NCBI GenBank assembly: GCA_963781065.1
Contig: CAWAET010000022.1
Span: 29,055 to 93,054 of the forward strand
Length of the DNA stretch: 64,000 nt
Origin: Thermoanaerobaculia bacterium
GTDB taxonomy: Bacteria > Acidobacteriota > Thermoanaerobaculia > Multivoradales > JAHEKO01
Reading direction: 5' to 3'
The notes below the pieces were generated by a model that had not been told where the DNA came from, did not search any database, and saw nothing but the letters and a program-made list of their open reading frames with translations. Below are positions 10,198 to 48,193 of the stretch, in pieces (the stretch's first letter is position 1; every line of letters begins with the position of its first letter). The translations under genes were made by a program, and so were the position numbers.

Positions 10198-10212
10198 CGC
10201 GCGGCCGAACCG

Positions 10213-11321: not shown

Positions 11322-11419
11322 TCGCAGCCCTCCGAGGTCTTTTCCGCCGGGACTTCCGCGTCCACAAGGACTGCGCCGCCCCGGCGATACTCGCCAACGT
11401 CGCCAAAGTAGCCCAGAGG

Positions 11420-11447: not shown

Positions 11448-11531
11448 CCGCGCCGCCGCGCTGCTACAATCCCGCCATCGGAAGGGCGCTTGGGGCTGGT
11501 CTGGCGCTGGCGCTTGGTCAGTGGGGCTCAC

Positions 11532-13838
11532 ATGAGTGACATCGAGATCCGTCTGCTGGGCGGTTTCGACATTCGCTGCGGCGAGGCGGCAGTGCGACGT
11601 TTCGAGTCGCAGAAAGCGCGTGGGCTGCTCGCCTATCTGGCGCTGCACCGCAACCAGGCGCTGAGCCGGGAGCACGTCTCCACCCTGCTGTGGTGCGACA
11701 AGGACGAGACCGCTGCCCGGCGCAACCTGCGCCAGGTGCTCTACAGCCTGCGCACCGTCTTCACCGAGGCCGGGCTGAGCGCCGAGCTGCTGCTCGGCGC
11801 CGCCAAGGAGATCAAGCTCCACCCCGACATCGACGTGCGGGTGGACGTGGTCGACTTCGAAGAGGCCATCCGGCGCGGACTCGACGGCACCGAGCCCGAT
11901 TCGCAACAGCTCGGCCGAGCCGCCCGGCTGTACATCGGCGACTTCTTGAGCGGTTTCTTCGTCCGCGACTGCCCGCAGTTCGAGGAGTGGCTGATCACCA
12001 CGCAGGAGCGGCTGCGCGAGGCGGCCCTGGCCGCCTTTCACACCCTGGTCGGCGCCTGTCTCAGACGCGGCGAGTCGCGCATGGGCATCCACTACGCCCG
12101 CCGCCTGCTGGCGATCGACCCGCTGTCGGAGCGGGCGCACCGCCAGTTGATGCGCCTGTACGCCCTGTCGAGCCGCCGCACCCGGGCCCTGGCCCAGTTC
12201 GAGGAGCTGCGCAACCTGCTCAACCAGGAGCTCGGCGTCGAGCCGCTGGCCGAGACCACCGAGCTCTACCAGGCGATCCTGCTCGAGGAGGTGCCCGAGG
12301 AGTCGGCCGGCGAAGAGCCGATGGGCCCCCTGATCCCGCTCGCCGGGCGGAGCGAAGAGCTGGCCGAGCTGCAGGGCTCGTGGCAGCAGGTCCTCGAGCA
12401 CGGCGCCCGGCTGGTGCTGATCAGCGGCGAGACCGGCGTCGGCAAGACCCGGCTGGTCAAGACCTGCGTCGACCGCGCCAGCTCGCAGCGCCGCACCCGG
12501 GTGCTGCGCGGCCGCGCCTACGAGGCCGCCCCGGCGCTGGCCTACGGCCCCTGGGCCGAGATCGTCACGACGGTCTTCGCCGACCTGATGCCGGACGAAG
12601 AGCTCGATCCCGAGCAGATCGACATGCGGTCGATCTCCGACCTGGCCCTGATGGCGCCGCAGCTGGCGGCGCTCGACCCCGAGCTGCTGGGCGGGCCGGC
12701 GCGGCGCGAAGACGGCGATGCGACTCGGCTGCCCGAGTCGCTGGGGCTGCTGCTGGCGGCCCTCACCGAGGGGCAGGACGGCGGCCGGACGCCGATGATC
12801 CTCATGCTGAGCGACCTGCACTGGGCCGCCGCGGAAAGCCTGGACCTGCTCCAGCTGCTGGCGCCGCAGCTCGCCGGACTCCCCGTCCTGGTGCTCGCCA
12901 CCGTCGACCCCACGGTGCCCGGGCTGGCGCATCCGCTCCTCACCGGCGGCGCGACCGACATCGGTCTGCCGGTCGACCGTCTGGCCCTCGGCCGCCTGCC
13001 GACCGAGGCCCTGGCCGAGATCGCCGACGCCCTGGTGCCCTCGGAGGACAGTCCCTGGCTGGCCGAGCTGTTGGAAGCCTGGTCCGGCGGCCTGCCGCTG
13101 GCGGTGACCGAGCTGATCAACTACCTGTGGGACGAGGACGTGCTGATCGCCCGCCAGCCCGGAGGCTGGACCGTGGACCGCGAGCGCGCCGAGACCTGCG
13201 AGCCGCCGGCAAGCCTCCACGACCTGATCGTCAGCCGATTCCGTGGCCTGCCGGCCTCGGCCCGGCGGCTGCTGGCACTGGCCGGTGTCATCGGGCAGCG
13301 CTTCGACGTCGACCTGCTGCGGGTCGCCGGCGACGAGAACCTCGCCGTCGTCGAGGCCTGCATCGAACTGATGCTGCAGCGCTGGCTGATCCGCCAGTTC
13401 CCCCGCACCTGGACCCACACCGGCCGCGAGCGCGACATCGTGCTGTTCGCCCGCGGCGCCCGCCGCGGCATCTTCGAGTTCGCGCACGAATCGATCCGCA
13501 GCGCCATCGTCGCCGACGTCAACCCGCTACGGCGGCAGGTGATGCACCGCGACACAGCGGCCGCTCTGGCCCAGATCTATGCCGAGGACTCCGAGTCGGT
13601 CTGTGAGGCCACCGCCCACCACCTGATCGAGGGCGGCGAGATCGACCGCGCGCGGGACTGCCTGATGATGGCGGCCGAGCGGGCGCGGCTGGCCGGTGCC
13701 ACTACCACCGAGAGCCGCTATCTCGAGCGCTGGCGGACATCGCTGGGCCGCAACAAGGGCTCCCGCGCGGCACCCGGCGAGCGCGAGCACATCGAGCAGC
13801 GGCTGAGCGAGATCGCCGCCCTCCAGCCGCCGGGCTAG
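11532..13838 (+). CDS. SARP/AfsR-family regulator (winged-helix + BTAD + AAA ATPase + helical repeats)
   Basis: MSDIEIRLLGGFDI...QKARGLLAYLALH (OmpR-type DNA-binding domain), a BTAD region (FEEWL...ELYQAIL) and a P-loop (ISGETGVGKTRLV). ATG at 11532. Confidence 0.85.
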   Translation: MSDIEIRLLGGFDIRCGEAAVRRFESQKARGLLAYLALHRNQALSREHVSTLLWCDKDETAARRNLRQVLYSLRTVFTEAGLSAELLLGAAKEIKLHPDIDVRVDVVDFEEAIRRGLDGTEPDSQQLGRAARLYIGDFLSGFFVRDCPQFEEWLITTQERLREAALAAFHTLVGACLRRGESRMGIHYARRLLAIDPLSERAHRQLMRLYALSSRRTRALAQFEELRNLLNQELGVEPLAETTELYQAILLEEVPEESAGEEPMGPLIPLAGRSEELAELQGSWQQVLEHGARLVLISGETGVGKTRLVKTCVDRASSQRRTRVLRGRAYEAAPALAYGPWAEIVTTVFADLMPDEELDPEQIDMRSISDLALMAPQLAALDPELLGGPARREDGDATRLPESLGLLLAALTEGQDGGRTPMILMLSDLHWAAAESLDLLQLLAPQLAGLPVLVLATVDPTVPGLAHPLLTGGATDIGLPVDRLALGRLPTEALAEIADALVPSEDSPWLAELLEAWSGGLPLAVTELINYLWDEDVLIARQPGGWTVDRERAETCEPPASLHDLIVSRFRGLPASARRLLALAGVIGQRFDVDLLRVAGDENLAVVEACIELMLQRWLIRQFPRTWTHTGRERDIVLFARGARRGIFEFAHESIRSAIVADVNPLRRQVMHRDTAAALAQIYAEDSESVCEATAHHLIEGGEIDRARDCLMMAAERARLAGATTTESRYLERWRTSLGRNKGSRAAPGEREHIEQRLSEIAALQPPG

Positions 13839-14608: not shown

Positions 14609-15508
14609 TCAGCCCAGGCCGAGGAAGCCGCGAACCACGTGCCGGGCCACTTCCGGGTTCTCGCGCAGCCGGCGGATCGAGTAGGCGTACCAGTCTCGCC
14701 CGTAGGGCACGTAGACCCGCAGCCGGTGCCCCTCGGCCAGCAGGATGCGGCGCAGCTCCTCGTCGACTCCGAGCAGCATCTGGAACTCGTAGCGGTCCCG
14801 GGGCAGCCGGTGGCGGTCGATCAGCTCGCGGGCGGCGCAGACCAGGTACTCGTCGTGGGTGGCAATGCCGACGTAGACCCCCTGGCGGATCAGCTTGTCG
14901 AGCGCCGCCACGAAGTTGCGCCGCACGGTCTCGTAGCCCTTCCAGGCGACGGTCCGCGGCTCGATGTAGATCCCCTTGCACAGCCTTGCGTTGGCGCCGT
15001 CGGCCGGCAGCGCGGCGATGTCGTCCAGGGTGCGGCGCATGTAGGCCTGGAAGACCACCCCCAGGTTGCCGTGCCGCGGCTGCAGCTCGTGGTAGATCCG
15101 CAGCGTGGCGTCGGTTGCCGTGCGGTCCTCCATGTCGAGGCGCAGGAAGTTGCCGTGGCGGGCTGCCACGGCGGCGATGCGGTCGACGTTGTCGCGGCAG
15201 AACGACTCGTCGATCTCGAGGCCGACCATGGTCAGCTTGATCGAGACGTTGGAGTCGAGCCCACGGCGCTCGATCTCGTCGAACAGCCGCAAGTACTCCT
15301 CTACCGCCGCCTCGGCCCGGCGGCGGTCGGTGACCTCCTCGCCCAGCAGGTCGAGGGTGGCCATGGCGCCGGTCTCGTTGAGGCCGGCGATGACCTCGAA
15401 CGCCCGCTCGCGGCTCTCGCCGGCGACGTAGCGGCGCGCCACTTTGCCGACCAAGAACCTGGGAACCAGCGGCAGGCCGACGACGACCAAGCGGCCGAAC
15501 AGGCTCAT
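14609..15508 (-). CDS. proline dehydrogenase family protein
   Basis: Motifs SIKLTMVGL, FLRLDMED, QAYMRRT, RLCKGIY, YEFQMLLGV and VYVPYG. ATG at 15506-15508. Confidence 0.8.
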   Translation of the reverse strand: MSLFGRLVVVGLPLVPRFLVGKVARRYVAGESRERAFEVIAGLNETGAMATLDLLGEEVTDRRRAEAAVEEYLRLFDEIERRGLDSNVSIKLTMVGLEIDESFCRDNVDRIAAVAARHGNFLRLDMEDRTATDATLRIYHELQPRHGNLGVVFQAYMRRTLDDIAALPADGANARLCKGIYIEPRTVAWKGYETVRRNFVAALDKLIRQGVYVGIATHDEYLVCAARELIDRHRLPRDRYEFQMLLGVDEELRRILLAEGHRLRVYVPYGRDWYAYSIRRLRENPEVARHVVRGFLGLG

Positions 15509-15545
15509 GCCGCTCGCGTCGGGCGGCGTGAATGGCGGGGGCGGT

Positions 15546-16886
15546 TCACGCCGAGTCGCCGCCCTCGACGCCGGCCCCGGCCTCCGGCGCGTCGGCCACC
15601 CAGCGCACCGACTTGGAGCACGGGCAGACGCCGCCCACCCGGCGCAGGTCCGGCATCGCCGAGACCGCGTCGCGCAACGTGGACTCGCCGGCGGCCAGCT
15701 TCTGCGCCTGCTCCACGTAGTGCCGGAAGTCGCGGCTGGCACGGTAGGCGTCGGGCAGGTGCTTGCGCAGATGCTCGAGATAGGAGGCCAGGTCGTCGAA
15801 GCTCTCGCCCTGCCAGCCGGTGAGCTCGAAGGCCGGCACCCCCCGCCGGCGAAAGAAGGCGCGGTGGGGCAGGTGCACCAGGTCCTCCCAGGCGATCCCC
15901 TGCTCGCTGCCGTGCTCGGCCAGGATCCGGTCGAGCACCTTCTCGGCCTGCTTCAGGTCGAGCCCCGGGATGCGCGCCCGGATATAGCGCATGTTGAGGT
16001 CGCGCACCAGCTTCTCGACCTCTTCGATGTAGAGATCCTGCGCCTCCAGGTTCTTCATCGGCTTGAGGCCGAACCGGACGTTGGTGCCGCCGCCGCGCTC
16101 GTCGCCGAACATCTCGAGGCCGCGCGGGAACCACTTGTTGATCGTCTTCTGGATGTCCGACGTGGCGACATAGGGCAGCTCGCGGGCCGCCTGCTCCATC
16201 CAGCGCCGCAGCGGCACCACCCCGGCCGCCAGGTGGAAGGCCTCCTCGCGCAGCATCTGCGGCATGCTCTCGGCCATCGGCTTGTAGGCGCTGACCCGCT
16301 GCATGTTGAGCTGGTACTTGCCGACGCGGTCGATAAGGGCGCAGAAGACGGCGTTGTCGACGAAGGAGTCGAAGTCGACGTTGAAGGCCCCCAGGATGTG
16401 GGAGCCGGTGCGCATCGACAGGGTCTCCTCGACCAGCTGATCGCCGCCGACGTCGGATACCGACGTCCAGTCGTCCTCGAGCAGCAGATGCAGCATCTGG
16501 TAGCCGTGGCGCAGCTCCTCGGCCATCATCCGCAGGATCCAGAACTGCTCCTCCTCGTTCTGCGCCCGCGCCAGCGTCAGCTGGTGCTGCTGGATCGAGC
16601 CGAACTCGGTCGACGCCTGGGCGCGGATCGCCCCCAGCAGATGCGCCGCCTGCTCCGGGTGGAGGTCCGCGGCGCGGGTGCGCTTGGGCTCGCCCTCGGC
16701 ATCGCCGCACTCGATCTCGTTGCAGATCCCCAGCTCGCGGAAAGCGCAGAGCTCGAAGGGGCGGTCGCGGGGAAAGTGCTTGTCCCAGTTCTCGACCAGG
16801 AAGTCGTAGTCGGGCAGAAAAGTCTGCCGCCACTTGACCACGGCGTCGTGGTACTTGCCCGGTAGACGGGTCTTGGTCATCCGCAT
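15546..16886 (-). CDS. ferritin-like diiron oxygenase, BoxB/PaaA-like (assignment tentative)
   Basis: 446 aa from [14 protein letters not shown] and [11 protein letters not shown] are candidate diiron E / ExxH motifs, with [10 protein letters not shown] further on. No partner reductase or hydrolase genes lie nearby. Confidence 0.5.
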
Positions 16887-16891
16887 GCCTG

Positions 16892-17353
16892 CTAGGTCCC
16901 CTCTCCCAGCCGTTTGACGAACGGCCGCAGCGACGACGGCTGGAAGCCGAGGCTCTCGAAGAAGCGCTCGATGCCGGTCATCTCCGCGTTCACCATGGTG
17001 CGCACCGCGGTGGCGCCCTGGGCCTCGAAATAGGCCATCATGGCCTCGGCCAGCCGTCGCCCGACCGCCTGGCCGCGGGCCTCGGGATCGACGCCCAGGA
17101 CCTCGATCCAGCCGGTGGGCTCCTCCATGCCGAACTCGCCCGAGCGGATCTCGCCGAACATGAAGCCCACCACGCGGCCGCCGCTCTCGGCCACCACCGA
17201 GGCCTCCGGATCGCGCCGCGAGTAGTAAGCCATGCGCTGCTCCCAGACGTCGGGCCGGTAGTCGCCGCCGATCTTCTCGTCGATACCGATGATCTCCCCG
17301 AGGTCCGTGTCCTCGAGGCAGCGGATCCGCACTTCTGGCGTCGTCTCGCTCAT
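16892..17353 (-). CDS. GNAT family N-acetyltransferase
   Basis: [16 protein letters not shown] is an acetyl-CoA binding motif (Q/RxxGxG/A). Confidence 0.8.
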
Positions 17354-17479
17354 CTTGATGTCGCCGGTTCTCGATCCCGGCCCTCCATTGCGCCAACTGA
17401 GACCAGTCTACCCGCCGGCTGGGAATGGCGGCAACAGGTTTCCCGGCAAACAGGTGCTTCGCGAGCGCCTGCCAACCGG

Positions 17480-29191: not shown

Positions 29192-29878
29192 CTACTCCTG
29201 CCGCCCAGTCTCCACCCACTGAGCCGCCCGCTGAGCCAGCTGGGCGGCGGTCTGGATGCCCAGCTTGTTCTTGATGTGCTCGCGGTGGGACTCGATGGTC
29301 TTGACGCTGAGGCTCAAGGTCTCGGCGATCTCGCGGGTGCCGCGGCCCTGGCCGATCCAGCGGAAGACCTCGAGCTCGCGGTCGCTCAAGGCCTCCAGAG
29401 GCGAGCCGGCGGCCAGCTTGCGACCGTCCAAAAACCGGCCCGCCAGGCGGCGCTCGAGCTTGCCGCTCATGTAGGTGCCGCCGTCGAGCACACGGTGGAT
29501 GGCGACGAGGACGGTCTCGTCGAGCTGCTGCTTGTCGACGTAACCGCGGGCGCCGGCACGTAGCGCGCGCTCGGCGTAGACCGACTCGTCGTGCATGGAG
29601 AACACCAGCGCCGGGACTCTCGGATCGCGAGTCTTGAGCTCCTTGACGAAATCCAGACCGTCGCGCCCGCCCAGCTCGAGGTCGACGACGACCATGTCGG
29701 GGCGGAGCTCGCGGACCGCCGCCAGCGCCTCGGCGGCGGAGGCGGCCTCACCACAGGCTGTCAGATCGGGCTCGGAGTCGATCAGCGCGGTCAGACCGCG
29801 CCGCAGGACCGGATGGTCGTCGACGATGAGGACTCTCTTCGGGGCCTGAGACACCCGGTCGGTCCGCTCTGCCGTCAT
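29192..29878 (-). CDS. NarL/LuxR-family response regulator (REC + HTH)
   Basis: VLIVDDHPVLRRGL starts the REC domain. The C-terminal part reads LSDRELEVFRWIGQGRGTREIAETLSLSVKTIESHREHIKNKLG. ATGA overlap with the kinase stop. Confidence 0.9.
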   Translation of the reverse strand: MTAERTDRVSQAPKRVLIVDDHPVLRRGLTALIDSEPDLTACGEAASAAEALAAVRELRPDMVVVDLELGGRDGLDFVKELKTRDPRVPALVFSMHDESVYAERALRAGARGYVDKQQLDETVLVAIHRVLDGGTYMSGKLERRLAGRFLDGRKLAAGSPLEALSDRELEVFRWIGQGRGTREIAETLSLSVKTIESHREHIKNKLGIQTAAQLAQRAAQWVETGRQE

Positions 29879-31023
29879 GATCCGGTCCTCTCGCAAGCAC
29901 CGCGTTGCGGCGCCCCCGAACCGGCGGCTGGCTCGGACCCTCGCCCGGGCTGGCTCGGAACCAGGCGCAGCGGGAGGGAGCAGATCACAATGGTGCCTCG
30001 CGCGGCACGCCGGCGCACCTCGAGAGAGGCACCGATCAGCCGCGCTCGGTAGGCCATGGTGTGCAGCCCCATCCCACGCCCGTCGGGCGGACACTCGGGC
30101 AGGCCCACTCCATCGTCCCGAACGGTCAGGACGGCCCTGCCGTCGGCAACGGCCAGGCCGATCTCGACGCGAGCTGCCCGGGCGTGAGCCACGGCGTTGC
30201 TGACCGCTTCCTGGGCAATGCGGAAGAGGTGATCCTCGTCGTCGCAGGCCAGCCGGGGGAACTCCTGCGGCCCAACAAAGCCACAGGAAACCCGGAACAG
30301 GCGCTCGACGCTTGCGGCCTGGACCTCCAGGGCGGTGCCGAGGCCACCGGTATCCAGGCCCGATGGGGCCAGCCCGCGGGCCAGGTCGCGCGCCTGGCCG
30401 ATGGCGTCGTTGAGCAACGAGGTGATCTCGGCGGCGGTGGCGGCGGCGCTCGCTTCAGACGCCGCAGCCAGTCGCCGCCACAGCATCGAGCTGAGGGCGG
30501 CGATGCCGGCCAGGCTCTGGCACAGGCCGTCGTGCAGCTCCCGCCCCAGTCGCTCCTTTTCGCGGTCCGCCACCTCGAGGATCTCCCGCTCCTGCCGCCG
30601 GCGCCGGGTGACGTCCCGCGCGGTGGCGTGGATGCGCCGGCGTCCCGGCACCGGTCGGGCGTTCCACTGCAGCCAGTGGTACGAGCCGTTTCGGTGGCGG
30701 TAGCGGTTCTCGAAGAAGATCGTCTCGGCGCCGGCGGCGAGCTTGGCGACCTCGGCCCGCGTCCGCTCGCGGTCGTCCGGGTGCACGAAGTCGAGAAACG
30801 GGCTCGCCTGAAGCTCGTCGAGGCTCCATCCCAGACGGATCGCCCAGGCCGGGTTGAGGCGCTTGAAGTAGCCGTCGAGACCGGCGATGCAGAGCAGGTC
30901 GGGCGACTGGGTGAAGAACCGGGCGAGCTCGGCCTCAGCCTCCGCTGCTCGGGCCAGCGCTGCCTTCGCGGCCGCGGGCGCCGGGCGCTGCGCGGGGTTC
31001 ATCGAGCTTGGTAGCGTTGACAT
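29875..31023 (-). CDS. cytoplasmic PAS-domain sensor histidine kinase (HisKA_3/NarX-type)
   Basis: PAS region (LLCIAGLDGYFKRLNPAW...YRHRNGSYHWLQW), H-box (LGRELHDGLCQSL) and ATPase region (VRDDGVGLP...GMGLHTM). No TM segment. Confidence 0.85.
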   Translation of the reverse strand: MSTLPSSMNPAQRPAPAAAKAALARAAEAEAELARFFTQSPDLLCIAGLDGYFKRLNPAWAIRLGWSLDELQASPFLDFVHPDDRERTRAEVAKLAAGAETIFFENRYRHRNGSYHWLQWNARPVPGRRRIHATARDVTRRRRQEREILEVADREKERLGRELHDGLCQSLAGIAALSSMLWRRLAAASEASAAATAAEITSLLNDAIGQARDLARGLAPSGLDTGGLGTALEVQAASVERLFRVSCGFVGPQEFPRLACDDEDHLFRIAQEAVSNAVAHARAARVEIGLAVADGRAVLTVRDDGVGLPECPPDGRGMGLHTMAYRARLIGASLEVRRRAARGTIVICSLPLRLVPSQPGRGSEPAAGSGAPQRGACERTGS

Positions 31024-38692: not shown

Positions 38693-38751
38693 GGCCGGCG
38701 CGCCGCCGCCCGGCCACCGGTCGCCGCGGCGGCCGGGATGGCAAGGCGGCC

Positions 38752-39768
38752 TCAGGAGCGTTCGAGGTCGGCCAGAACGGCCTCCCGCACCGCCGGCAGG
38801 CCGGCCATCCCGGGCGGATAGACAAGCCGGCGCACCGGCACCTCCCGCACCAGCCGGGCAAAGGCCTCCAGCCGTGCCGCCTGCAGGCCCGCCGCCTCGA
38901 CGATGTAGGGCGAGAACGAGCGGCGCAGCAGCTCGACGACCGCCTGCCGCGCGGGGACCGGAGAGATCCGGACGCCCCCGCCGGCCGTCTCGCCATCCAG
39001 CCGCTCGGGCAGATACAGACGGCCGAGCGGCGCCGCGGCGGCGTGGAAGTCGCCGAAGCCGCCCTCCCCGACCGGAACCCAGTGCTTGCCGAGCTGGACG
39101 CGAGACGCCTCGCGGAGCCCCGGATCGGTGACGAAGTGCGCCAGCCCGTCCGGCCGCATGCGCATCTGGGGGTAGCCGGAGCGGCCGACGATCCCTGCGG
39201 CGGGCGCCTCGATCGCCAGCAGGTCGTCGCAGAGCAGCGGCGCGCCACCGGCCATCATCGCCGCCGCCAGGGCGGTCTTGCCGCCCCGGTGGCCGGCCAT
39301 GAAGGCCACCACCCGGCCGGCGACAACCACCGCCGAGGCGTGCAGGGCGCAGATCGCCAACCGCTCCAGCCAGTAGGCCAGGACCGGCCCCAGCAGGCGG
39401 ACCTCGACCAGCCGCGCGCCGGCCGCCCGACGCAGGTGACAATCGATGCGATCGCCGCCCAGGTAGAAGTCCAGCGCGTCGCCAAAGCGCAGCAGCTCTC
39501 CCTCGTCCAGCCGGTAAAGCCGCGACAGGCTGTCGCCGGCCGGATCGAGCAGCGGGCTCTCGTAGACCGGGTCGCCCAGCTGCGCCACGTACGGAGGCCG
39601 GTCCGCGACCGAGAAGGTCAGATCCACGTCCCCCCGGCCCGGCGACAGCCGGCTGGCAAAGGCGAACGAGCTGGCCAGGGTGAGGCCGAACAGGCGGTGG
39701 CTGCGCCGGCCCGAGATCGCGCCGGAGATCGCGCCCCTCGGGGTGCCCCCGTCCGGCGCCTCCGTCAT
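38752..39768 (-). CDS. HPr-kinase-C-terminal-domain-like serine kinase (HprK-related)
   Basis: LHASAVVVAGRVVAFMAGHRGGKTALAAAMMAGGAPLLCDD is a P-loop-like GxxGGKT in an HprK-type context. Confidence 0.65.
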   Translation of the reverse strand: MTEAPDGGTPRGAISGAISGRRSHRLFGLTLASSFAFASRLSPGRGDVDLTFSVADRPPYVAQLGDPVYESPLLDPAGDSLSRLYRLDEGELLRFGDALDFYLGGDRIDCHLRRAAGARLVEVRLLGPVLAYWLERLAICALHASAVVVAGRVVAFMAGHRGGKTALAAAMMAGGAPLLCDDLLAIEAPAAGIVGRSGYPQMRMRPDGLAHFVTDPGLREASRVQLGKHWVPVGEGGFGDFHAAAAPLGRLYLPERLDGETAGGGVRISPVPARQAVVELLRRSFSPYIVEAAGLQAARLEAFARLVREVPVRRLVYPPGMAGLPAVREAVLADLERS

Positions 39769-39800
39769 GGCACCTCCGTCATGGCGCCTCCGTCATGGCG
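39759..39800 (-). repeat. three tandem 14-nt units (minus strand GCCATGACGGAGGn), each carrying an ATG and a GGAGG
   Basis: Direct reading. ATGs lie at 39796, 39782 and 39768. The first two open 5-codon ORFs (MTEAP*, MTEVP*) whose TGA overlaps the next ATG. The third opens the kinase gene. Confidence 0.85.
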
Positions 39801-39815
39801 GCCCCATCATCGCGG

Positions 39816-40829
39816 TCAGACGGCGGCGGCTTCCAACAGCCGGTGCCCGGCCAGCGTCTCGGCGAAGGAACCAAGGTCCCGCCGCAGGGTGTCGAGCGGC
39901 GCCTCGTACCGCTCGGCGAGGAAAGCCGCTCCGGCGTCGACGCTGCCCCAGGCCGCCAGGGCCCGCCACATGTCCGCGCCAACCCCCTCGAGGGCGAAGA
40001 CCCGATCCGTCGCCAGCGAGTAGAGCCAGATGCGGTCGTCGAGGGCGGCCGTGGCCACCTCATCGGCGACCCGCCAGGCCGGGGCCTCCACCGGCACCGG
40101 CGGCGGCCCGAGCTCGGCCCGCGCCTTGAGACAGCTGTGCGGCGGCAGCAGCCGCCAGCCCCGCTCGAGAGCCCCGCTGGCGGGGTTCCAGATCGGGCGG
40201 TCGGGCTCGCTCCAGGCAAAGCCGACCAGGTCCGGCAGACCCAACCAGTAGCGGCCGCCGCCGAGGTGGTCGCGACCGCTGGCCAGCCAGCGTGGATAGT
40301 CGTCGCCGTACAGCTCGCGCGCGTGGTCGGCCAGATCGGCCGCCGCCACACAGCGCTCCACCCGCGGCTCGGTGGCGACGATCGCCGCGCGCAGGTCCGG
40401 GTGCGAGTAGAGGTGCGCGAACACGACCCGCGGGCTGTCGCAGCCGGCCAGGGCGGCGCGGAAGCGCGAGCCGCTCAGCGCACAGTCGTCCACCAGCAAA
40501 AGCGGCCGATCGCCGGCCGGCTCGCCCGACAGCCGTGCCGCGCGCAGATCGAGCATGTACGCCAGCATGCCCAGCACGATCAGCCCGCCACGCGGGATGC
40601 CGCGGGCGGCGAACGCTCTCAGATCGCCGCGCGAGTGGCCCTCGAGCAGCTTGGCCGCCAGCGCCTCGCACAGGCGCTCGGCCCGGCGGTAGTCGACATA
40701 GCGGAGGGTGTGGCGCAGGCGCCGGACGACTCCCGGCAGGGTGCCCAGCCGCGCGGCATCGACCGATGTCAGCCCCGGCGGGGCCTGCAGGCCGGTCGGC
40801 AGCCGGTCCGCCTCATCAGTCCTCGTCAT
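39816..40829 (-). CDS. fusion protein: phosphoribosyltransferase-like domain + C-terminal PqqD-family (RRE-type) domain
   Basis: RGGLIVLGMLAYML and PLLLVDDCALSGSRF are a PRPP-type motif. The C-terminal ALEGVGADMWRALAAWGSVDAGAAFLAERYEAPLDTLRRDLGSFAETLAGHRLL is PqqD-like. The ATG at 40827-40829 overlaps the upstream stop (ATGA). Confidence 0.6.
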   Translation of the reverse strand: MTRTDEADRLPTGLQAPPGLTSVDAARLGTLPGVVRRLRHTLRYVDYRRAERLCEALAAKLLEGHSRGDLRAFAARGIPRGGLIVLGMLAYMLDLRAARLSGEPAGDRPLLLVDDCALSGSRFRAALAGCDSPRVVFAHLYSHPDLRAAIVATEPRVERCVAAADLADHARELYGDDYPRWLASGRDHLGGGRYWLGLPDLVGFAWSEPDRPIWNPASGALERGWRLLPPHSCLKARAELGPPPVPVEAPAWRVADEVATAALDDRIWLYSLATDRVFALEGVGADMWRALAAWGSVDAGAAFLAERYEAPLDTLRRDLGSFAETLAGHRLLEAAAV

Positions 40830-41977
40830 CGGCCGAGCTGGAAGATGACGGCGCCGACGTCGTCGCCCTGGAGCTCCCACTCGGTGGACTCCCGCTTGCG
40901 GTTGGGCCCGAACGAGTAGACGAAGATGACGCGGCTGCCGCGGCGGCGCGAGCACTCGTCACGGATCCAGTAGGGCGAGTTCCAGGGGTCGAGGAAGAAC
41001 TCCGCCCGCTCCGTCGGCATGCCCTGGCCGGTGAGCGCGGCGAAGGCGCCCTCGTACAGGTAGTCGGTGTCGTACTTCTCAACGAACGAGTAGACCCGCT
41101 TGTGCACTCCGCACCGGGTCACCGCCTTGCCGCGGTTGTCACGCGCCATGGTCAGGAAGTCGTCCTTGAGGGCGGCGGTCTCGGTAACCACCGCGGCCAG
41201 GATCTCCTCGCCGGTCCCGCGCTGCCCGCGCGAGTAGGCAGCCGCCGCCAGGCCCAGCGCGGCGACGATCGCCACCACCAGCGCCAGCCTGCCGAGACGC
41301 CGGGGCCCGGTCTCGGGCCGGCCGGCAAAGGTCTCCGCCGCGACCAGCGAGGCGAACAGGAATCCCAGCCCGACCATCAGCTCGATCACCTCGCCGGTGA
41401 ACTTGAGCGGATACTGCTGGTAGACGACCCAGGTGACCAGGAAGGCTGGCGCCAGTTGCCACGGCGACGCCACGACGGCGAGCCGATCCAACTGCCGGCG
41501 GACCGGCGCCGCCAGCGCCAGCAGCGGCAGCAACACGCCGTAGCCCAGGATGACGCCCTTCAGAGCCAGCTTGCGCAGCGAGGTGTCGACCACGTTGTGG
41601 ATGTTCAACTCCTGCTGGAAGTTCTCCTGCAGGAAGTAGACCGGCGGCCGGTAGCCCAGCACGCGCTGGCCCCACGAGATCTCCTCGCCGGCGACAAAGA
41701 CGCAGAACAGCGAGACGCCAGCCAGGAACCAGGGCAGCGCCCCGCTCGCCCGCCGCTGGCGGACCGCGGCGACGGCGAAGATCACCGCGGCGACGGCAAA
41801 GGCCCAGACCGTGGCCCATTCGAGGAACTCGTCCTCCTGGACCGCCTGGTAGTAGGCGTCCCGGCTCGACTCGTGAAGCGCCAGGGCCACGAGCAGCGGC
41901 AGCACCGCCAGCAGGTTGGCCACCAGCGGCCAGACGAAGCCCTGGGAGCTTCGGGCCGTGTTGAGCGTCGCGTTCAT
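40826..41977 (-). CDS. polytopic membrane protein with a GspG-C-terminal-like soluble domain
   Basis: Several hydrophobic helices occupy the first 250 aa or so. The C-terminal DPWNSPYWIRD...VYSFGPNRKRES resembles the pseudopilin DPWGxPY...GPDG motif. Confidence 0.65.
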   Translation of the reverse strand: MNATLNTARSSQGFVWPLVANLLAVLPLLVALALHESSRDAYYQAVQEDEFLEWATVWAFAVAAVIFAVAAVRQRRASGALPWFLAGVSLFCVFVAGEEISWGQRVLGYRPPVYFLQENFQQELNIHNVVDTSLRKLALKGVILGYGVLLPLLALAAPVRRQLDRLAVVASPWQLAPAFLVTWVVYQQYPLKFTGEVIELMVGLGFLFASLVAAETFAGRPETGPRRLGRLALVVAIVAALGLAAAAYSRGQRGTGEEILAAVVTETAALKDDFLTMARDNRGKAVTRCGVHKRVYSFVEKYDTDYLYEGAFAALTGQGMPTERAEFFLDPWNSPYWIRDECSRRRGSRVIFVYSFGPNRKRESTEWELQGDDVGAVIFQLGR

Positions 41978-42062
41978 AACCTCGACGCCGATTGTACAGG
42001 CAGGGCAAAGCCGGCAGAGGAGCCACGCTCTCCCCTACCGGCCGCGCCCCACCGGGCAGACG

Positions 42063-44834
42063 CTAGTGACTATCGCTGTCCGAATCGCTGTCCGACGCGC
42101 TGTCGGAGTCGGAATCGCTGTCCGACGCGCTGTCGGAGTCGGAGTCACCCGAGTCCGAGTCCCCGTCGTCGGTCACGATCTCGCCGTTGATGTGGCACGC
42201 CAGGCCGCCGCCGTCGGAGTCGCCATCCGAGTCGGAATCCGAGTCACTATCGCTGTCCGAGTCCGAATCGCTGTCCGAGTCCGAGTCGTCGCTGTCGGAA
42301 TCGCCGTCATCGTCGCCCAGTGGGCAGAGCTCGCCGCCCTCGCGGCTGGTCCCCTCGACGACCTCGAAGTCGCCGCTCACGAGGCCCGGCCCGATTGGCT
42401 GCGAGCAACTCGTGTGGATCTTGGTGTTGAGCTGGCCGTTGACGTAGATGCTGATCTCGGTCCCCAGGGTGCCCTTCTTGTCCATCCCGGAGAAGGAGAA
42501 CGGCGCTCCGGGCTGGACGAAGTCGTTGAAGACCACCTTGCCGTCCTTCTTCTGCTTGATCAGGACCTGGGCGTTCATCGTCAGCCCGTTGTACTGCAGA
42601 GTAAGTTCCTGGACCTTGCCCTCGCACCCGCCGCAGTCGCCGCCGGGGTCGTTCCCGGAGTCGCTGTCGGAGTCATCGGAGCCCGAATCACTGTCGGAAT
42701 CGTCATCGAAGTCGATCAGGCAGATCGGGGCCACCCCGGTGATGACGTCATCGGAGTCGGAGTCGGAGTCGGAGTCGCTGTCATCACCCGAATCCGAGTC
42801 ACTGTCGTCGCCCGAATCGGAGTCGCTGTCGTCGCCCGAATCCGAGTCGCTGTCGTCGCCCGAGTCCGAGTCGCTGTCATCGCCCGAGTCCGAGTCGCTG
42901 TCATCGCCCGAGTCCGAGTCGCTGTCATCGCCCGAATCCGAGTCGCTGTCGTCGCCCGAGTCGGAGTCCGAGTCGACGTCACAGGGACAGATGTACGGGA
43001 AGTCGAAGGTCAGGACGTCACCCGAGCCCACGAGGTCCACCTCGAAGCCCGGCACTATCCGGTCGGGCCCCCCAAGGCCGTCGCCACCGTCGTTGGTGAC
43101 GATCAGCGCCGTTACCGGCAGGGTGATGGCCAGGCCCTCGAGAGGGCCGCCCGGCTCGGAGTTCGCCGGCGTGCACTCGACCAGGTACTCACCAGGCTCC
43201 AGCCCTTCGAACAGGTACATGCCGCTGTCGTCGGTCGTCGTGGTGTCGAGCAGCTCCGTCTGATCCGCGTTCCAAAGCTTGACCTCGACTCCGGGGATGC
43301 CCGGCTCGCCGGGATCCTCTTCGCCGTCGCCGTCGCGGTCCAGCCAGACGAAGTTGCCGACGTTGTACTCGGGATCCGGCACCACCTCGGCGTCGAAGCG
43401 GAAGAGGTTCAGGTTCTCCAAGTCGAGTCCGCTGACCCTGACCTCGTAGAGACCCGGTGGCAGCTCCGCCACCTGGGCGTCGGAGGCCACGATGCGGGTC
43501 GTGGGCACGCCGGGATCGGTGGGATCGAACAGAGTGATCTCACACAGCGCCGAGCCTTGCGAGATGCAGAAGACCTCCCACTCGCGGTTGCCGGAGGGAT
43601 TCACACCGGGGTCATCGCCCGGCGCGCCGTTGCTGGCCAGGACCTCGTCCAGCCCGCCGGTCTGGCCGTCGTAGCGCTCGCGCAGGATGACCTCGTAGTA
43701 GATCGACGGCTGACGCAGGAAGGGGTTGTTCGAGGTCGCGGGTCGGTCATCAGGCGGGTTGCCGGTGGAGGGCCCCAGGCCGCCGGCCACACCCTCCCAC
43801 TCCGCGCGCCGCACGATGCAGAAATCGCCGGGCGCCGGAATCGGATCGCCGAGCTCCTGGGCGCAGGCAGTCACGCAACCCGCTTCGCCAACCTCGAGCT
43901 CGGGCTCGGTGCAGCGGAACCCCCAGGGGGGCAAATCGCCCAGGTCCCCCACTATCGAGGGTGTGTTGGGGTCATCCGTGTCGTTGTTGGTGCCGAGCGC
44001 GTCGCCGCGATCCAGATCGCCGTCCCAGATCTCGAGCTGGTTGATCTGACCGGAGCCCGGGGGCGCCTGCACGTCGAGGAAGAAGCTGAACGTGCCGTCG
44101 TAGGTCGTGCCCTCAGCGAGGCAGGCCGGGAAGTTGCTCAGGTCGGACAAGCAGGCCGGGTAGATGATCGCCAGCTCCTTCAGGTCGGGCATCGCGGCAT
44201 TGAAGCCGAAGGGCTGCTGCGTCACCTGGATCGAAACGTCGGTCTCGAAGGTCTGGACCTTGAAGACGCTGCGGATCGTCTCCGACGAACTCGACGGCAC
44301 CGACTCCAGTGCCGAGCGCAGCACGTAGGCGTACTCGCTCTCGCACGGGTTCTGACCGGGGTTCCCCACGCACGCCGCGGGGTCATTCGTCACCGCGAAC
44401 GACGTCCACGCGTTGTCGTCCAGCTCCTCGGTGAATTCGTTGATGACCAGCAGTGGAGCCACGTCGTCCGGGTTGCCGTCTTGTGGAGCGACGTCCGGGT
44501 ACAGCCGAAAGATCAGCCGCGGATCGGGCTTGATCGCCGCCTGGGTGTTGATGTCCCAGTGGCCGACGGCCCGGCTGGTCTCGCCGTCGAAGATCCGCAG
44601 CGTGAAGCCGGCGATCAGCGGCGAGCTGATCTGGATATCGACTCCCTGATCGGCAAAGGTCGCCAGGCCCTGGTCGGCTCGTGTGTCGGTGATCGCGAGA
44701 AACCGCCCGTCGTTGACCGCGCAAGACGGCAGACAGTTGGTGTCCATCTGCGCCTGCGCCGCGGCCACAGTGGGCAGCGTGAGCACCAGGACCACCAGCG
44801 ACAGTCCAATGCAGGTGTGCTTGTTCAGTCTCAT
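42063..44834 (-). CDS. secreted Ser-Asp-repeat protein with an SdrD-B/Cna-B-like domain
   Basis: Signal peptide (CIGLSLVVLVLTLPTVAAAQA). GNFVWLDRDGDGEEDPGEPGIPGVEVKLWN...DSGMYLFEGLEPGEYLV is an SdrD B-like fold motif. There are two DS-rich repeat tracts. GGAGG lies 5 nt upstream of the ATG. Confidence 0.85.
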   Translation of the reverse strand: MRLNKHTCIGLSLVVLVLTLPTVAAAQAQMDTNCLPSCAVNDGRFLAITDTRADQGLATFADQGVDIQISSPLIAGFTLRIFDGETSRAVGHWDINTQAAIKPDPRLIFRLYPDVAPQDGNPDDVAPLLVINEFTEELDDNAWTSFAVTNDPAACVGNPGQNPCESEYAYVLRSALESVPSSSSETIRSVFKVQTFETDVSIQVTQQPFGFNAAMPDLKELAIIYPACLSDLSNFPACLAEGTTYDGTFSFFLDVQAPPGSGQINQLEIWDGDLDRGDALGTNNDTDDPNTPSIVGDLGDLPPWGFRCTEPELEVGEAGCVTACAQELGDPIPAPGDFCIVRRAEWEGVAGGLGPSTGNPPDDRPATSNNPFLRQPSIYYEVILRERYDGQTGGLDEVLASNGAPGDDPGVNPSGNREWEVFCISQGSALCEITLFDPTDPGVPTTRIVASDAQVAELPPGLYEVRVSGLDLENLNLFRFDAEVVPDPEYNVGNFVWLDRDGDGEEDPGEPGIPGVEVKLWNADQTELLDTTTTDDSGMYLFEGLEPGEYLVECTPANSEPGGPLEGLAITLPVTALIVTNDGGDGLGGPDRIVPGFEVDLVGSGDVLTFDFPYICPCDVDSDSDSGDDSDSDSGDDSDSDSGDDSDSDSGDDSDSDSGDDSDSDSGDDSDSDSGDDSDSDSGDDSDSDSDSDSDDVITGVAPICLIDFDDDSDSDSGSDDSDSDSGNDPGGDCGGCEGKVQELTLQYNGLTMNAQVLIKQKKDGKVVFNDFVQPGAPFSFSGMDKKGTLGTEISIYVNGQLNTKIHTSCSQPIGPGLVSGDFEVVEGTSREGGELCPLGDDDGDSDSDDSDSDSDSDSDSDSDSDSDSDGDSDGGGLACHINGEIVTDDGDSDSGDSDSDSASDSDSDSDSASDSDSDSDSH
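42081..42140. repeat. perfect 30-nt tandem duplication inside the C-terminal SD tract
   Basis: GAATCGCTGTCCGACGCGCTGTCGGAGTCG x2 by direct reading. Encodes DSDSASDSDS twice. Confidence 0.85.
42747..42975. repeat. about 8 tandem 24-nt units encoding DSDSDSGD
   Basis: GTCGCTGTC(G/A)TCGCCCGA(A/G)TCCGA periodicity by direct reading. The repeat is in frame in the SD-repeat gene. Confidence 0.85.
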
Positions 44835-44897
44835 CGTGTCCTCCGTTCGCCCGACCCGTTCATCGTCCGGGATCTTGCGTGAATTGTGCTCACCAAC

Positions 44898-44925
44898 CGT
44901 CAGGAAAACGTCAGGTGACGTATCG
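44898..44925 (-). promoter_or_regulatory. second copy of the heptamer direct-repeat box, plus-strand CGTCAGG-aaaa-CGTCAGG-tga-CGTATCG
   Basis: Same heptamer and same 11/10-nt spacing as 11420-11447. On the minus strand the proximal CCTGACG lies 9 nt upstream of CACAAT (44883-44888), and that hexamer ends 48 nt upstream of the SD-repeat gene ATG. Confidence 0.45.
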
Positions 44926-44947
44926 GTGGGGACTCATGGGCTCCCCT

Positions 44948-44983
44948 GAAACGGAAAACGCCGGCGTCGCCCGGCGCCGGCGT
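44948..44983 (-). terminator. intrinsic terminator downstream of the precursor-like ORF
   Basis: The minus strand reads ACGCCGGCG-ccgggcga-CGCCGGCGT followed by TTTCCGTTTC. Perfect 9-bp stem. Confidence 0.55.
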
Positions 44984-45012
44984 AGTCGTGGAGCCAGGGT
45001 CACCGGACCGGA

Positions 45013-45186
45013 TCAGGTGGCGAACGACGCGCCGAAGCCGTCCCCGGGCACCTGGGTGGAGAGCGTGCGGGTGAGCTCCTTCAAGCTCCCGTACTCCTGC
45101 AGCTCGGGCGGCTGGTAGGGATGTCCGCGCCGGCTCTCGGCCGATGGCCTCTTCGCCTTGGTTGGCTCAGGTCGCTTGTCGCTCAT
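45013..45186 (-). CDS. candidate lasso-peptide precursor (57 aa), in frame with the upstream cyclase-like ORF
   Basis: MSDKRPEPTKAKRPSAESRRGHPYQPPELQEYGSLKELTR|TLSTQVPGDGFGASFAT. It matches the leader motif YxxPxLx3Gx5Tx exactly, and Asp is at core position 9. GAGGAGG lies 11 nt upstream of the ATG. A terminator follows the stop. Confidence 0.45.
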   Translation of the reverse strand: MSDKRPEPTKAKRPSAESRRGHPYQPPELQEYGSLKELTRTLSTQVPGDGFGASFAT

Positions 45187-47065
45187 CTCTTGGTCAACCT
45201 CCTCGGGCAAACCCCGCAGCCAGGATTCCAGGCAGAGAAAAGATAACAGTCCATAGGCGGTACCCGTTCCATCCCAGAATCTATCGAAGGCGGCTGCAAC
45301 GGAGCCAGTAATGAACTGTACAGCTTCGGCGTGGGGCTTGTCCAGCATCCGCTCGACCGCCGTCCTCTCCTCGTGCCTCAGACGGCCGAGAAGCACGTCC
45401 TGGATGTGGCTCTTGCTCACTCGCCGCCGAATCCGCTCGGGCATCCGGCCAGCCATCGCCAGGCGCAGGATGCGCCGGTCGCCGCCGTGCCAGCTGCGCA
45501 ACCGGCGGGGCGCGTGGAGCAGGAGATCCACCACTCGGCGGTCGAGGAACGGCAGGCGCCACTCCACCCCGGCGTGCGCCGCGGTGACGTCGATCGCGCT
45601 GTGCCGAGCCAGATCGAACGGCCGCCCGATGGAGCGCGCCGCCCAGCGGCCGGCGGGCCCCAGGCCGGCGGCGAGAGCTCGCCGCGGCAGGGCCGGCAAC
45701 CGGCCGCGCCACGACCCTCGACCGGCGCGCCGCACCCATTCCCGATCGCCGGCGGGCCGCAACCGCCGCAAGGCCTCCTGCAGCCCGGCCGGAACCAGCG
45801 GCCAGAGAAAGGCTCGCGCCAGGAGCTCGGCGGTAGCCGTCCCGGTCGTCGAGCGGAAGCGGGGCAGCTCGGCCGCCAGCTCGCGCCAGCCGACCAGCCG
45901 CAGCGCCCGCGGGTCGTAGTAGAAGGCGTGGCCCAGCACCTGGTTGGCGCCTTCGCCGGCCAGCACAACCCGGCAGCCGTCACCCGCGGCGGCGTCGAAA
46001 AGCGCGGCGGTGTGGCTGCGCAGCAGGTAGACCTCGGGCTCGTCCAGCGGCTGCTCGTCGGCCGCCAGCCGACCGAGGGTAAGCGGCAGCTCCGCCGCCG
46101 GGATCCGTCGCGACGCCACGCCCTCGAGTCGATCGTCGAGCTCGTCGAAATAGTCGCTCTCGTCCGCCGTCGGCGTGCCTTCGAAGGTGAGACAGTAGAG
46201 GCGCAGCCGTTCCGCCGCGACGGCCTCGTGGGCGGTGCTGGCGACGGCGGCCGAGTCGACGCCGCCACCGGCCAGCAGACCCACCGGCTTCGGGCTGCGC
46301 AACCGGCTGCTGACCGCCAGATCGAACACCCGGCGGAAGCCCTCGGCCCACTCCTCGTCGCTGGTCGAAGGAGCCCGAGAAGGTCGACCCCAGCTCCCAC
46401 CACAGCCGCTGCCTGAGGCCGGTCTCGTCGGCGGTCAGGAAGTGCCCCGGCGCGACGCGCCGCACTCCTTCGTAGACAGTGCCCTCGATCCAGTGGCGGT
46501 AGGAATCGTGGAGAAAGGCCTCGACCAGCGGCCGGTTGAGCGGCGGCCGCTCGGCCAGCGCCGCCAGCACCGCGCCGATCGTGCTGCCGAAGGCCAGCGT
46601 CGCTCCGCGCCGCGCCCAGTAGAGCTGGCGCATGCCCATCGCGTCGCGGGCCAGCAGCAGCCGGCGCCGAGCGCCGTCCCACAGGGCGAAGGCGAAGTCG
46701 CCGAGGGCCTGGTCGCACACCCGTGGCCCGAACCGTTGATAGCCGGCCAGCAGGAGCCGGGCGTCGGAGGCGTCCTCGCCGAGCTCCGGCCGGCCTTGCC
46801 GCAGGCCGGCCAGCAGCTCGTCCCGGTTGTCGATCCGCGCGTCCGCGACGAGCCGTAGCCGGCCGCTCGCGTCGGCGATCGGCTGTTCCTCGGCGACCTC
46901 CTCGGGCGTCGTCCAGAACCGGCCGTGCACCATGCCGACGGCGCCGCCGACCCAACTCGCCATGCCGTCCGGCGAGCGGTAGGCGAGCTGGCCCGCCATC
47001 CGATCCAGCCGCGTCGGGTCGATCGGCGCACCGTCCAGGTTGAGCAAGCCGGCGAAACAGCTCAA
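45013..47065 (-). pseudogene. asparagine-synthetase-like (lasso-cyclase-type) gene, frame broken near 46360, no stop codon before the precursor-like tail
   Basis: The N-terminal GATase-like domain (GDFAFALWDGARRRLLLARDAMGMRQLYW) is in the frame of 45980..47170. The synthetase domain (LLAGGGVDSAAV ... LESWLRGL) is in the frame of 45013..46329. The junction reads GAC CAG C GAC GAG. Probable TTG start at 47065 ([12 protein letters not shown]). Confidence 0.65.
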
Positions 47066-47108
47066 GGCCGCGGGCCCCGCGCCGTTGGCGGTGCGAGAGC
47101 GGCCCGCG

Positions 47109-48193
47109 CTAGGCCACGCTGACGTCGTCGCACAGGAAGACGTCCTGGATCGCGTTGAGCAGCTCGACACCCTCGGCCAGCGGGCGCTGGAACGCCTTGC
47201 GGCCCGAGATCAGGCCGCAGCCGCCGGCGCGCTTGTTGATCACCGCGGTGCGCACCGCCTGGGCCAGGTCGCCCTGGCCGCTCGACGAGCCGCCCGAGTT
47301 GATCAGCCCCACCCGGCCCATGTAGCAGTTGGCCACCTGCCAGCGCACCAGATCCACCGGGTGGTCGGTGGTCAGCTTGTCGTAGACCAGCGGGTGCGTC
47401 TTGCCGAAGCCGATCGGCGCCGTAGCCGTTGTTGTTGGTCGCCTGCTTCTGCTTGACGATGTCGGCCTCGATGGTGACGCCCAGGTGGTTGGCCTGGCCC
47501 GTCAGGTCGGCCGCCGCGTGATAGTCGACGCCGTCCTTCTTGAAGGCCGGCTGGCGCAGATAGCACCAGAGGATCGTCGCCATCCCCAGCTCGTGCGCCT
47601 GGGCGAAGCACTCGGCGATCTCGACCAGCATCTCGTCCGAGTTCTCGGCGCCGAAGTAGACCGTCGCGCCGACGGCCGCGGCGCCCAGGTCCCAGGCCTG
47701 CTCGACGCTGGCGAACAGCACCTGCCGATAGCGCGTGGGGTAGGTCAGCGATCTCGTTGTGGTTGATCTTGACGATGAACGGGATGCGGTGGGCGTACTT
47801 GCGCGACATCGTGCCCAGGACGCCCATCGTCGAGGCGACGCCGTTGCAGCCGCCCTCGATGGCCAGCTCGATGATGTTCTCGGGGTCGAACAGCGCCGGG
47901 TTGGGGGCGAAGGATGCGGCGGCCGAGTGCTCGATGCCCTGGTCCACCGGCAGGATCGAGACATAGCCGGTGCCGCCCAGGCGGCCGTGGTTGAGGATCC
48001 GCCCCAGGTTGACCAGCACGCTGGGTTTGCGGTTCGAGATCCCCCAGACCCGGTCCAGGTGGTCGGGCCCGGGCAGGTGCAGCTGGTCACGAGTGATGCC
48101 GGTGCAGGTGTGCTCGAGCAGGCTCGTGGCCTCGTCGCCAAGCAGCTCGGCTATGCGGTCGATAGTGCCCGAAGGGCTTGCCGTTACGGTCAT
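47109..48193 (-). pseudogene. fbaB: class I fructose-bisphosphate aldolase (FbaB/DhnA type) split over three frames by two single-base insertions
   Basis: Three segments each match the FbaB pattern: [17 protein letters not shown]...FIVKINHNE, then [17 protein letters not shown]...[17 protein letters not shown], then [23 protein letters not shown]...AVINKRAGG. The breaks are at about 47749-47752 and about 47415. Confidence 0.85.

Follow-up and report, generated by a model that had tools for sequence, protein, structure and literature searches.

A probable lasso peptide gene cluster with a fusion gene and a kinase gene

What is the target of a run of four genes that pairs a secreted Ser-Asp (SD) repeat protein with putative tailoring enzymes? 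The question is raised by positions 38752-44834 of a 64 kb stretch of DNA (G+C ~71%) from a Thermoanaerobaculia bacterium (contig CAWAET010000022.1), analysed here at its full length and referred to as the window. The four genes encode the secreted protein, a membrane protein, a protein fusing a phosphoribosyltransferase (PRTase)-like domain to a PqqD-type RiPP (ribosomally synthesized, post-translationally modified peptide) recognition element (RRE), and a kinase resembling HPr kinase (HprK). A preliminary description of these genes offered two readings: a tailoring and export module for a peptide encoded just upstream, or a system dedicated to modifying the Ser residues of the SD repeats. 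We conclude, with a probability of about 0.72, that the region 38752-47065, in which every gene is on the minus strand, forms a single gene cluster for lasso-peptide biosynthesis, belonging to a widespread and uncharacterised subtype, with the tailoring mechanism proposed below. The precursor is probably decorated by the HPr-kinase-like enzyme and the fusion protein.

The cluster is transcribed in the order cyclase, precursor, a hairpin and repeat box, secreted protein, membrane protein, fusion protein and kinase. The open reading frames (ORFs) of the four genes were intact and co-directional, as first described, and each aligned with its orthologue in locus L005 in one reading frame with no frameshift. 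The L-numbered loci are relatives of the fusion gene with their flanks, and 87 loci were annotated using hidden Markov models (HMMs) built for this analysis.

The lasso precursor and cyclase that had been placed just upstream were both recovered with NCBIfam models. The lasso macrolactam cyclase (45187-47065, minus strand) is Asn-synthetase-like, carries Pfam GATase_7 and Asn_synthase, and matched the NCBIfam lasso cyclase model NF033535 with E 1.4e-54 in the N-terminal half and 7.9e-24 in the C-terminal half. It scored under the curated cut-off because the gene is split by a frameshift, a 1-nt insertion near 46365; tblastn against the intact 682-aa L005 orthologue gave two frames. The start was assigned to the TTG at 47065 by comparison with intact orthologues.

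The 57-aa precursor (45013-45186, minus strand) matched lasso_leader_L3. The leader, with YQPPELQEYGSLKELT-R and Thr at -2, conforms to the YxxPxLxxxGxxxxxT type, and the leader motif was also present in 60 unique precursors of related loci. The predicted core places the acceptor, Asp9, within positions 7-9 and begins with Thr, an unusual residue 1. The precursor has its own ATG (45186) with GAGGAGG ahead of it. The cyclase ORF nevertheless continues in frame into the precursor with no stop between them in the window (45013-47065), L005 (3630-5678) and L007 (1487-3520). Both L005 and L007 (70-87% identical) keep the internal ATG, and in each a purine-rich stretch precedes the precursor. A cyclase-precursor fusion may be made besides the separately initiated precursor.

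The fusion protein joins a PRTase-like fold to a lasso-type RRE

The fusion gene (39816-40829, minus strand; 337 aa) starts within an ATGA that it shares with the stop codon of the membrane protein gene, as had been noted. Both parts of the proposed PRTase-like and PqqD/RRE fusion were confirmed, the N-terminal fold by Foldseek and the RRE by Pfam, profile and Foldseek searches. The AlphaFold model of the protein had a pLDDT (predicted local distance difference test) of 90. The RRE spans aa ~250-337 (39816-40082 including the stop codon) and matched Pfam PqqD with E 1.3e-9. A family profile of this domain was closest to the lasso B1 protein TbiB1 (E 1e-14), followed by TfuB1 (E 1e-7), and Foldseek superposed it on TbiB1 with a TM-score of 0.89-0.91. 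The C-terminal 90 aa are thus like lasso B1 proteins in both profile (TbiB1 E 1e-14) and structure (TM-score 0.9). In contrast to those proteins, the RRE sits at the C-terminus of a 240-aa PRTase-like domain, and in canonical fused B proteins the RRE is N-terminal to a transglutaminase-type protease. The fusion gene is currently annotated merely as 'PqqD family protein'.

The PRTase-like domain (aa ~20-240; 40110-40772) was identified from a family alignment, Foldseek and comparison of its profile with OPRT loops. Foldseek matched it to the type I PRTases XGPRT, HGXPRT, OPRT, PyrR and UPRT, with E from 2e-4 and a TM-score on target of 0.4-0.6 (0.5-0.6 for XGPRT, HGXPRT and OPRT). Invariant across phyla were a PRGG loop, VDD..(S/T)G.R and the Trp-rich FAWSEPD...W...GW. 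In the family profile PRGG and LLLVDDCALSGSR aligned with the pyrophosphate (PPi) and phosphoribosyl pyrophosphate (PRPP) loops of OPRT/HGPRT, three positions being off consensus. Pfam Pribosyltran (PF00156) gave subthreshold matches in 10 of 36 members, the best with E 2e-4. The domain shares its core fold with type I PRTases (XGPRT, HGXPRT, OPRT), and its putative PPi loop (RGG) and acidic PRPP motif can be aligned with theirs. It differs from them in its ~20% identity, in a phosphate loop that reads SG.R rather than TTGGT, in the extra Trp-rich segment and in its presumed acceptor, a peptide rather than a base.

Two other accounts of this protein were rejected. A frameshift artefact is contradicted by hundreds of independent homologues that share the architecture and by the single frame against L005. 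Replacement of the B2 leader peptidase by the N-terminal domain does not fit the PRTase fold, and B2 is also present in 21 of 43 loci.

The kinase has the HprK/PEPCK fold

The last gene encodes a 338-aa P-loop kinase (38752-39768, minus strand), and the earlier assignment to an HPr-kinase-C-like Ser kinase agreed with its structure model, Foldseek and a family profile. The model (pLDDT 92) matched PEPCK with E 1.5e-6 and HprK/P with a TM-score on target of 0.52-0.62, and the family profile detected HPr kinases in the PDB at E 4e-4. HprK_rel_A was weakly matched by 36 of 37 family members. His143, Lys164, Asp181 and Asp182 were invariant in 37 sequences, and the His-Lys-Asp-Asp motif is essential in lasso kinases by mutagenesis (review PMC9266682).

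A second HprK-like kinase paralogue was seen in L001 (Methanobacterium formicicum DSM 3637), where it lies with B1 and B2 at 9144-10973 on the opposite strand. This paralogue set is ~5 kb from the fusion-cyclase-precursor-kinase set, with a 1339-aa CLIPPER-repeat surface protein between them.

The fusion and kinase genes are conserved beside lasso cyclases

The fusion is widespread. A word search returned 298 homologues of the same architecture, and, out of 1.84 billion, 381 representatives (50% identity) matched a profile of the PRTase-like domain with E<=1e-30; the 150 of these listed were 175-487 aa, nearly all long enough for the RRE. In species-representative genomes, both bacterial and methanogen, 135 stretches encode a relative, and 80 loci were kept. 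These 80 loci come from Thermoanaerobaculia and other Acidobacteriota, Chloroflexota, Cyanobacteria, Gemmatimonadota, Rhodothermales, cultured Halomonadaceae and methanogenic archaea.

The preliminary description would have been refuted by a lack of conservation of the gene set in other genomes, and gene context was counted in the 43 loci with at least 6 kb on either side. A lasso cyclase was present within 6 kb of the fusion gene in 39 of the 43, the same kinase family in 38 and a precursor with the lasso leader motif in 34. In 39 of 75 loci the kinase gene is directly downstream of the fusion gene. This conservation of the fusion-kinase pair with a cyclase across loci indicates that the module is aimed at the lasso precursor. 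The tailoring half of the first reading was strongly supported, as the fusion gene lies beside cyclase, precursor and kinase in ~90% of the 43 loci, in many phyla, and its RRE is nearest to lasso B1. The export half received no support.

B proteins were found less regularly, with a B2 peptidase within 10 kb in 21 of the 43 loci (22 without) and a discrete B1 within 10 kb in 25. Cyclase and kinase occurred with neither B protein in 13 loci. The gene order (C, cyclase; A, precursor; K, kinase) was B1-B2-C-A-fusion-K in L012, L018, L049, L067 and L075, B1-C-A-fusion-K in L003, L061, L073, L079 and L080, and C-A-fusion-K in Halomonadaceae, L028, L051 and the clade of the window. Cultured strains with a compact cluster include Halomonas salinarum G5-11 (L063), Billgrantia ethanolica (L086) and Litchfieldella qijiaojingensis (L074), the last with B1 and B2 in addition. 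Six-frame ORFs of the 64 kb contained no B2-like ORF (best E 1.3, using an HMM from the B2 proteins of related loci) and no second PqqD (best E 0.96), and ABC_tran was not among the 25 listed of 78 Pfam families for the 41 window proteins. Missing B2 and ATP-binding cassette (ABC) exporter genes had been called atypical; the absence of B2 was upheld for the 64 kb, and 22 related loci also lack B2 within 10 kb. L087 pairs a kinase of the same family with a discrete PqqD and NTP_transf_5, from which we infer that PRTase::RRE takes the place of a discrete RRE and an NTP (nucleoside triphosphate) transferase.

Loci with the pair and no cyclase were also seen. L031 (Altericista sp. CCNU0014, 8878-11233) carries the pair and a WxxP-type precursor with no cyclase within 10 kb, and in the cyanobacterial loci L020, L026 and L036, whose flanks are shorter (in L020, ~8.8 kb and 3.8 kb), no cyclase accompanies the kinase-fusion pair either. 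This suggests that the pair can act on linear peptides too.

In L068 (Litchfieldella rifensis) two lasso clusters adjoin (69-4223 and 7259-12086). One holds a cyclase, three precursors, B1 and B2, and the other a cyclase, the fusion gene and the kinase, which could make this locus a natural test case for cross-talk between canonical and PRTase-type clusters.

An internal Ser/Thr is the likely modification site

Core peptides of the related precursors share a Ser/Thr behind the ring. Among the 60 unique cores, 37 had Asp/Glu at positions 7-9 followed by G[ST], as compared to composition-preserving shuffles, which averaged 4 and reached at most 10. The Ser/Thr is mostly at +5 or +6 from the acceptor Asp/Glu, and the window core carries the variant D9-G-F-G-A-S14, with Ser at +5. 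Only 10 of the 60 cores end in Ser, and the window precursor ends in Thr. The pattern makes the internal Ser/Thr, Ser14 in the window, the likely site of modification.

Relation to known kinase-tailored peptides

The kinases PadeK, ThcoK and PsmK phosphorylate lasso precursors (PMC9266682, PMC6993621), and in the paeninodin type the acceptor is the C-terminal Ser (PMC9266682). In pseudomycoidin biosynthesis the NTP-transferase-like PsmN adds a hexose to phosphoserine, and B1 and B2 are dispensable (PMC6993621). A Stanieria cluster consists of a cyclase, a precursor and a PsmK homologue with no B proteins (PMC6993621). Popov et al. 2026 described the linear polyphosphorylated peptide (LPP) family of Bacillota, whose kinase and RRE modules co-localise with lasso clusters (PMC13381572). 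The arrangement in the window had been thought undescribed. For kinase-tailored lasso peptides with HprK-like kinases, clusters without B proteins and kinase plus RRE modules beside lasso clusters this is not so, as these are already known. For the PRTase::PqqD fusion it is: the searchable literature, outside which several key subscription papers lie, contained no PRTase-fold::RRE fusion, internal conserved Ser/Thr or secreted-protein neighbour of this kind.

The window resembles the paeninodin and pseudomycoidin clusters in its lasso cyclase, its YxxP-type leader and an HprK-like kinase with His-Lys-Asp-Asp, the kinases being likened by fold and motif. A second transferase, putative here, is shared with pseudomycoidin, where it decorates phosphoserine; in the window it is a PRTase fold fused to an RRE, whereas pseudomycoidin uses a discrete RRE and an NTP transferase. 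Unlike both systems, the window has no B2 in its 64 kb and no ABC exporter among the 25 Pfam families listed of 78, and systems of its kind are found mostly outside Bacillota. The Ser that is conserved lies inside the core (+5 from the ring Asp) rather than at the C-terminus. LPP clusters share with the window [Y/W]xxP leaders and a module in which an RRE guides an HprK-like kinase, situated next to or inside lasso clusters. They combine an SpI-like peptidase, a discrete RRE, an NTP transferase and a pump resembling MsbA and have no cyclase, whereas the window has a cyclase and no discrete RRE, and neither the peptidase, the NTP transferase nor the pump was among the same 25 of 78 families.

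Proposed mechanism and alternatives

In the mechanism we propose, the fusion RRE would bind the YxxPxL motif of the precursor leader and, because it is the sole RRE in the window, would probably also serve as the B1 of the cluster. The kinase would then phosphorylate the conserved Ser/Thr 5-6 residues past the ring Asp/Glu, here Ser14 of TLSTQVPGDGFGASFAT. The PRTase domain, with what appear to be a retained pyrophosphate loop and acidic PRPP-type motif, would use PRPP to add a ribose-phosphate-type group, in the simplest case to the phosphoserine by analogy with PsmN. The cyclase would close the Thr1-Asp9 macrolactam once the leader was removed, by a B2 encoded elsewhere in the genome or by a host protease.

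The association of the fusion with a lasso cyclase and a kinase possibly points to a new peptide modification. More specifically, PRTase::RRE would be an active leader-guided peptide (phospho)ribosyltransferase that works with the kinase to place a ribose-phosphate-type group on an internal Ser/Thr, in hundreds of bacterial and methanogen clusters, about half of which mature without a local B2, and that is tied to a secreted-protein family in Acidobacteriota and Chloroflexota. We put this forward tentatively and regard it as doubtful in its full form. Lasso peptides are a heavily mined RiPP class in which new tailoring chemistry is sought, and the fusion clusters are widespread and include cultured Halomonadaceae and cyanobacteria. 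If the PRTase domain is active, PRPP-dependent modification would be new to RiPP enzymology, and this would be the second case, after PsmK/PsmN, of phosphorylation priming a further decoration. The frequent absence of B2 bears on how lasso leaders are removed.

Several observations weigh against the assignment of the region to one active, doubly tailored lasso cluster. The hairpin and repeat box part the cyclase and precursor from the four downstream genes, so that co-expression is not assured. The frameshift in the cyclase may mean that the cluster is inactive in this organism, or it may reflect assembly errors, and the 64 kb lack a leader peptidase gene. The PRPP motif reads DDCALSGSR as compared to the PROSITE-type DDvlTTGgT and Pribosyltran stays subthreshold, so that the domain could bind another ligand or serve only as a scaffold. 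Characterised lasso kinases target a C-terminal Ser, and the window precursor ends in Thr. The strict motif is missing in 23 of the 60 cores, and a few loci, such as L031, have the fusion and kinase without a cyclase.

Some of these points would fit another arrangement, in which the kinase is the sole tailoring enzyme, the PRTase-like domain is inert or merely binds a ligand, and the fusion is an RRE adaptor that substitutes for B1 and brings the precursor to the kinase and the cyclase. The curated Pribosyltran threshold was never reached, the PRPP loop departs from consensus, the fusion gene adjoins the kinase gene in 39 of 75 loci, which fits a complex, and 13 of the 43 loci have no other RRE nearby. 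However, the PPi-loop PRGG, the acidic pair of VDD (Asp114/Asp115) and SG.R are invariant across phyla, which is not expected of a mere scaffold, and in the 25 of 43 loci that also encode a discrete B1 the adaptor role alone would be redundant. We consider this explanation unlikely.

The fusion-kinase pair could also be a semi-independent RiPP module with a linear product that is co-localised with lasso clusters in the manner of LPP of Bacillota, which we judge improbable. HprK-like kinase, RRE and NTP transferase do form their own RiPP family, often beside lasso clusters (PMC13381572), and L031 has the pair and a WxxP precursor with no cyclase within 10 kb; L020, with shorter flanks, has the pair and no cyclase. 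But the window has one precursor and one RRE, and both the leader (Thr at -2) and the core (Asp9) of the precursor are of the full lasso type. A cyclase lies within 6 kb in 39 of the 43 fully flanked loci, and neither an SpI-like peptidase nor an NTP transferase is among the families listed for the window (25 of 78).

The secreted SD-repeat protein and the membrane protein

The first of the four genes encodes a 923-aa protein (42063-44834, minus strand) that had been described as secreted, with DSDSDSGD repeats and an SdrD-B-like domain. Pfam confirmed SdrD_B (E 4.5e-20) and added DUF7467 (E 4.8e-12). By eye, the N-terminus is hydrophobic and signal-peptide-like. It is followed by an N-domain with no Pfam match (aa 29-485; 43380-44750), for which a PDB profile search also returned only noise. 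The SdrD_B Ig-like domain comes next (aa 491-555), then the DSDSDSGD repeats (aa 619-729), and DUF7467 (aa 754-827) stands ahead of an SD tail at the C-terminus. The protein contains 114 SD/DS dipeptides. It shares SD dipeptide repeats and the SdrD B-type Ig-like domain with staphylococcal MSCRAMM proteins of the Sdr/Clf type. It differs from them in its N-domain, which belongs to no Pfam family, in its Acidobacteriota host and in the lack of LPXTG, its C-terminus ending DSDSDSH, and it stayed below the NCBIfam Sdr/Clf cut-offs (~55-109 bits vs 999-2500).

In single-pass phmmer searches (E 1e-8 to 1e-38) the N-domain of the secreted protein recurred beside or inside fusion-containing lasso clusters. 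It was found in Holophagales (L066, 10973-15174), in other Thermoanaerobaculia (L069, 10982-14857; L071, 1362-8875; L077, 10988-13630 and 18439-20322) and in Chloroflexota (L075, 12098-14713; L018, 4401-5921). L087 (10001-11962) also carries the domain. Three members of the family were taken from long contigs; P0277 lies inside another lasso cluster, and P0281 and P0264 have no lasso genes nearby. The association with lasso clusters is recurrent, not obligate. Members share the motifs C.PSC..DGRFL, WDGD.D.G, DTDDP.TP and NPSGN.EWE.F and many invariant Asp residues. SD repeats were confined to the window, L005/L006 and L007, and the related secreted proteins at other clusters do not have them.

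The SD repeats were rejected as a conserved substrate on this distribution. The second reading of the preliminary description, in which the four genes are dedicated to phosphorylating or phosphoribosylating Ser in the co-encoded SD-repeat surface protein, is highly improbable. In its favour, the genes point the same way, are closely spaced and include an ATGA overlap, secreted proteins sharing the N-domain recur beside such clusters and staphylococcal Sdr SD repeats are targets of cytoplasmic glycosyltransferases. Against it, the repeats are limited to the window, L005/L006 and L007, the fusion-kinase pair is conserved far beyond, in lineages without such a protein including Halomonadaceae, cyanobacteria and methanogens, and the RRE is of the lasso leader-binding type while the secreted N-terminus resembles a Sec signal peptide and not a YxxP leader. 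The secreted protein is more likely a co-regulated partner than a substrate of the lasso cluster. Some functional coupling of the cluster to a secreted protein may exist, and the repeated presence of such a neighbour hints at a biological function at the cell surface.

An additional secreted-protein paralogue of 549 aa, with the N-domain and DUF7467 and without SD repeats, was seen in L005 between the kinase and a patatin gene (12156-13805). It is absent from the corresponding site of the window (38693-38751).

The second of the four genes encodes a hydrophobic, putative membrane protein of 383 aa (40826-41977, minus strand), as read from its sequence. It matched no Pfam or NCBIfam family, and among the 87 loci homologues occurred only in L005, L006 and L007. 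The earlier call of a polytopic membrane protein with a pseudopilin-like C-terminus can be kept in part: the protein is hydrophobic and probably membrane-bound, and the pseudopilin-like domain was rejected as no HMM backs the motif. Secreted and membrane protein genes between the precursor and the tailoring genes were seen only in the Thermoanaerobaculia-like clade of the window.

A hairpin and a repeat box precede the secreted protein gene

A hairpin resembling an intrinsic terminator (44958-44983, minus strand) has a 9-bp stem with 8 G-C pairs and a T-rich tail, the stem beginning 29 nt past the stop codon of the precursor. L005 largely keeps the hairpin arms, with substitutions. Between the hairpin and the secreted protein gene lies the previously reported repeat box, with a direct repeat CTGACG-N5-CTGACG (44895-44915, minus strand). 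The box, CTGACGTT(T/C)TCCTGACGG, is kept in the window, L005 and L007 bar one position while the flanking intergenic DNA has diverged. It is probably a regulator-binding or promoter site for the secreted protein gene.

Sequence quality and local composition

A class I aldolase gene of the DeoC family (47062-48193, minus strand) lies beside the cyclase and showed two frame changes against its intact L005 orthologue. The frame changes in both this gene and the cyclase may stem from errors of assembly or from genuine decay into pseudogenes. Overlapping ORF pairs elsewhere in the window (e.g. 29192-31023 and 14609-17396) suggest further frameshifts. Local G+C dipped to 0.62 at positions 24001-26000, as compared to ~0.71 window-wide.

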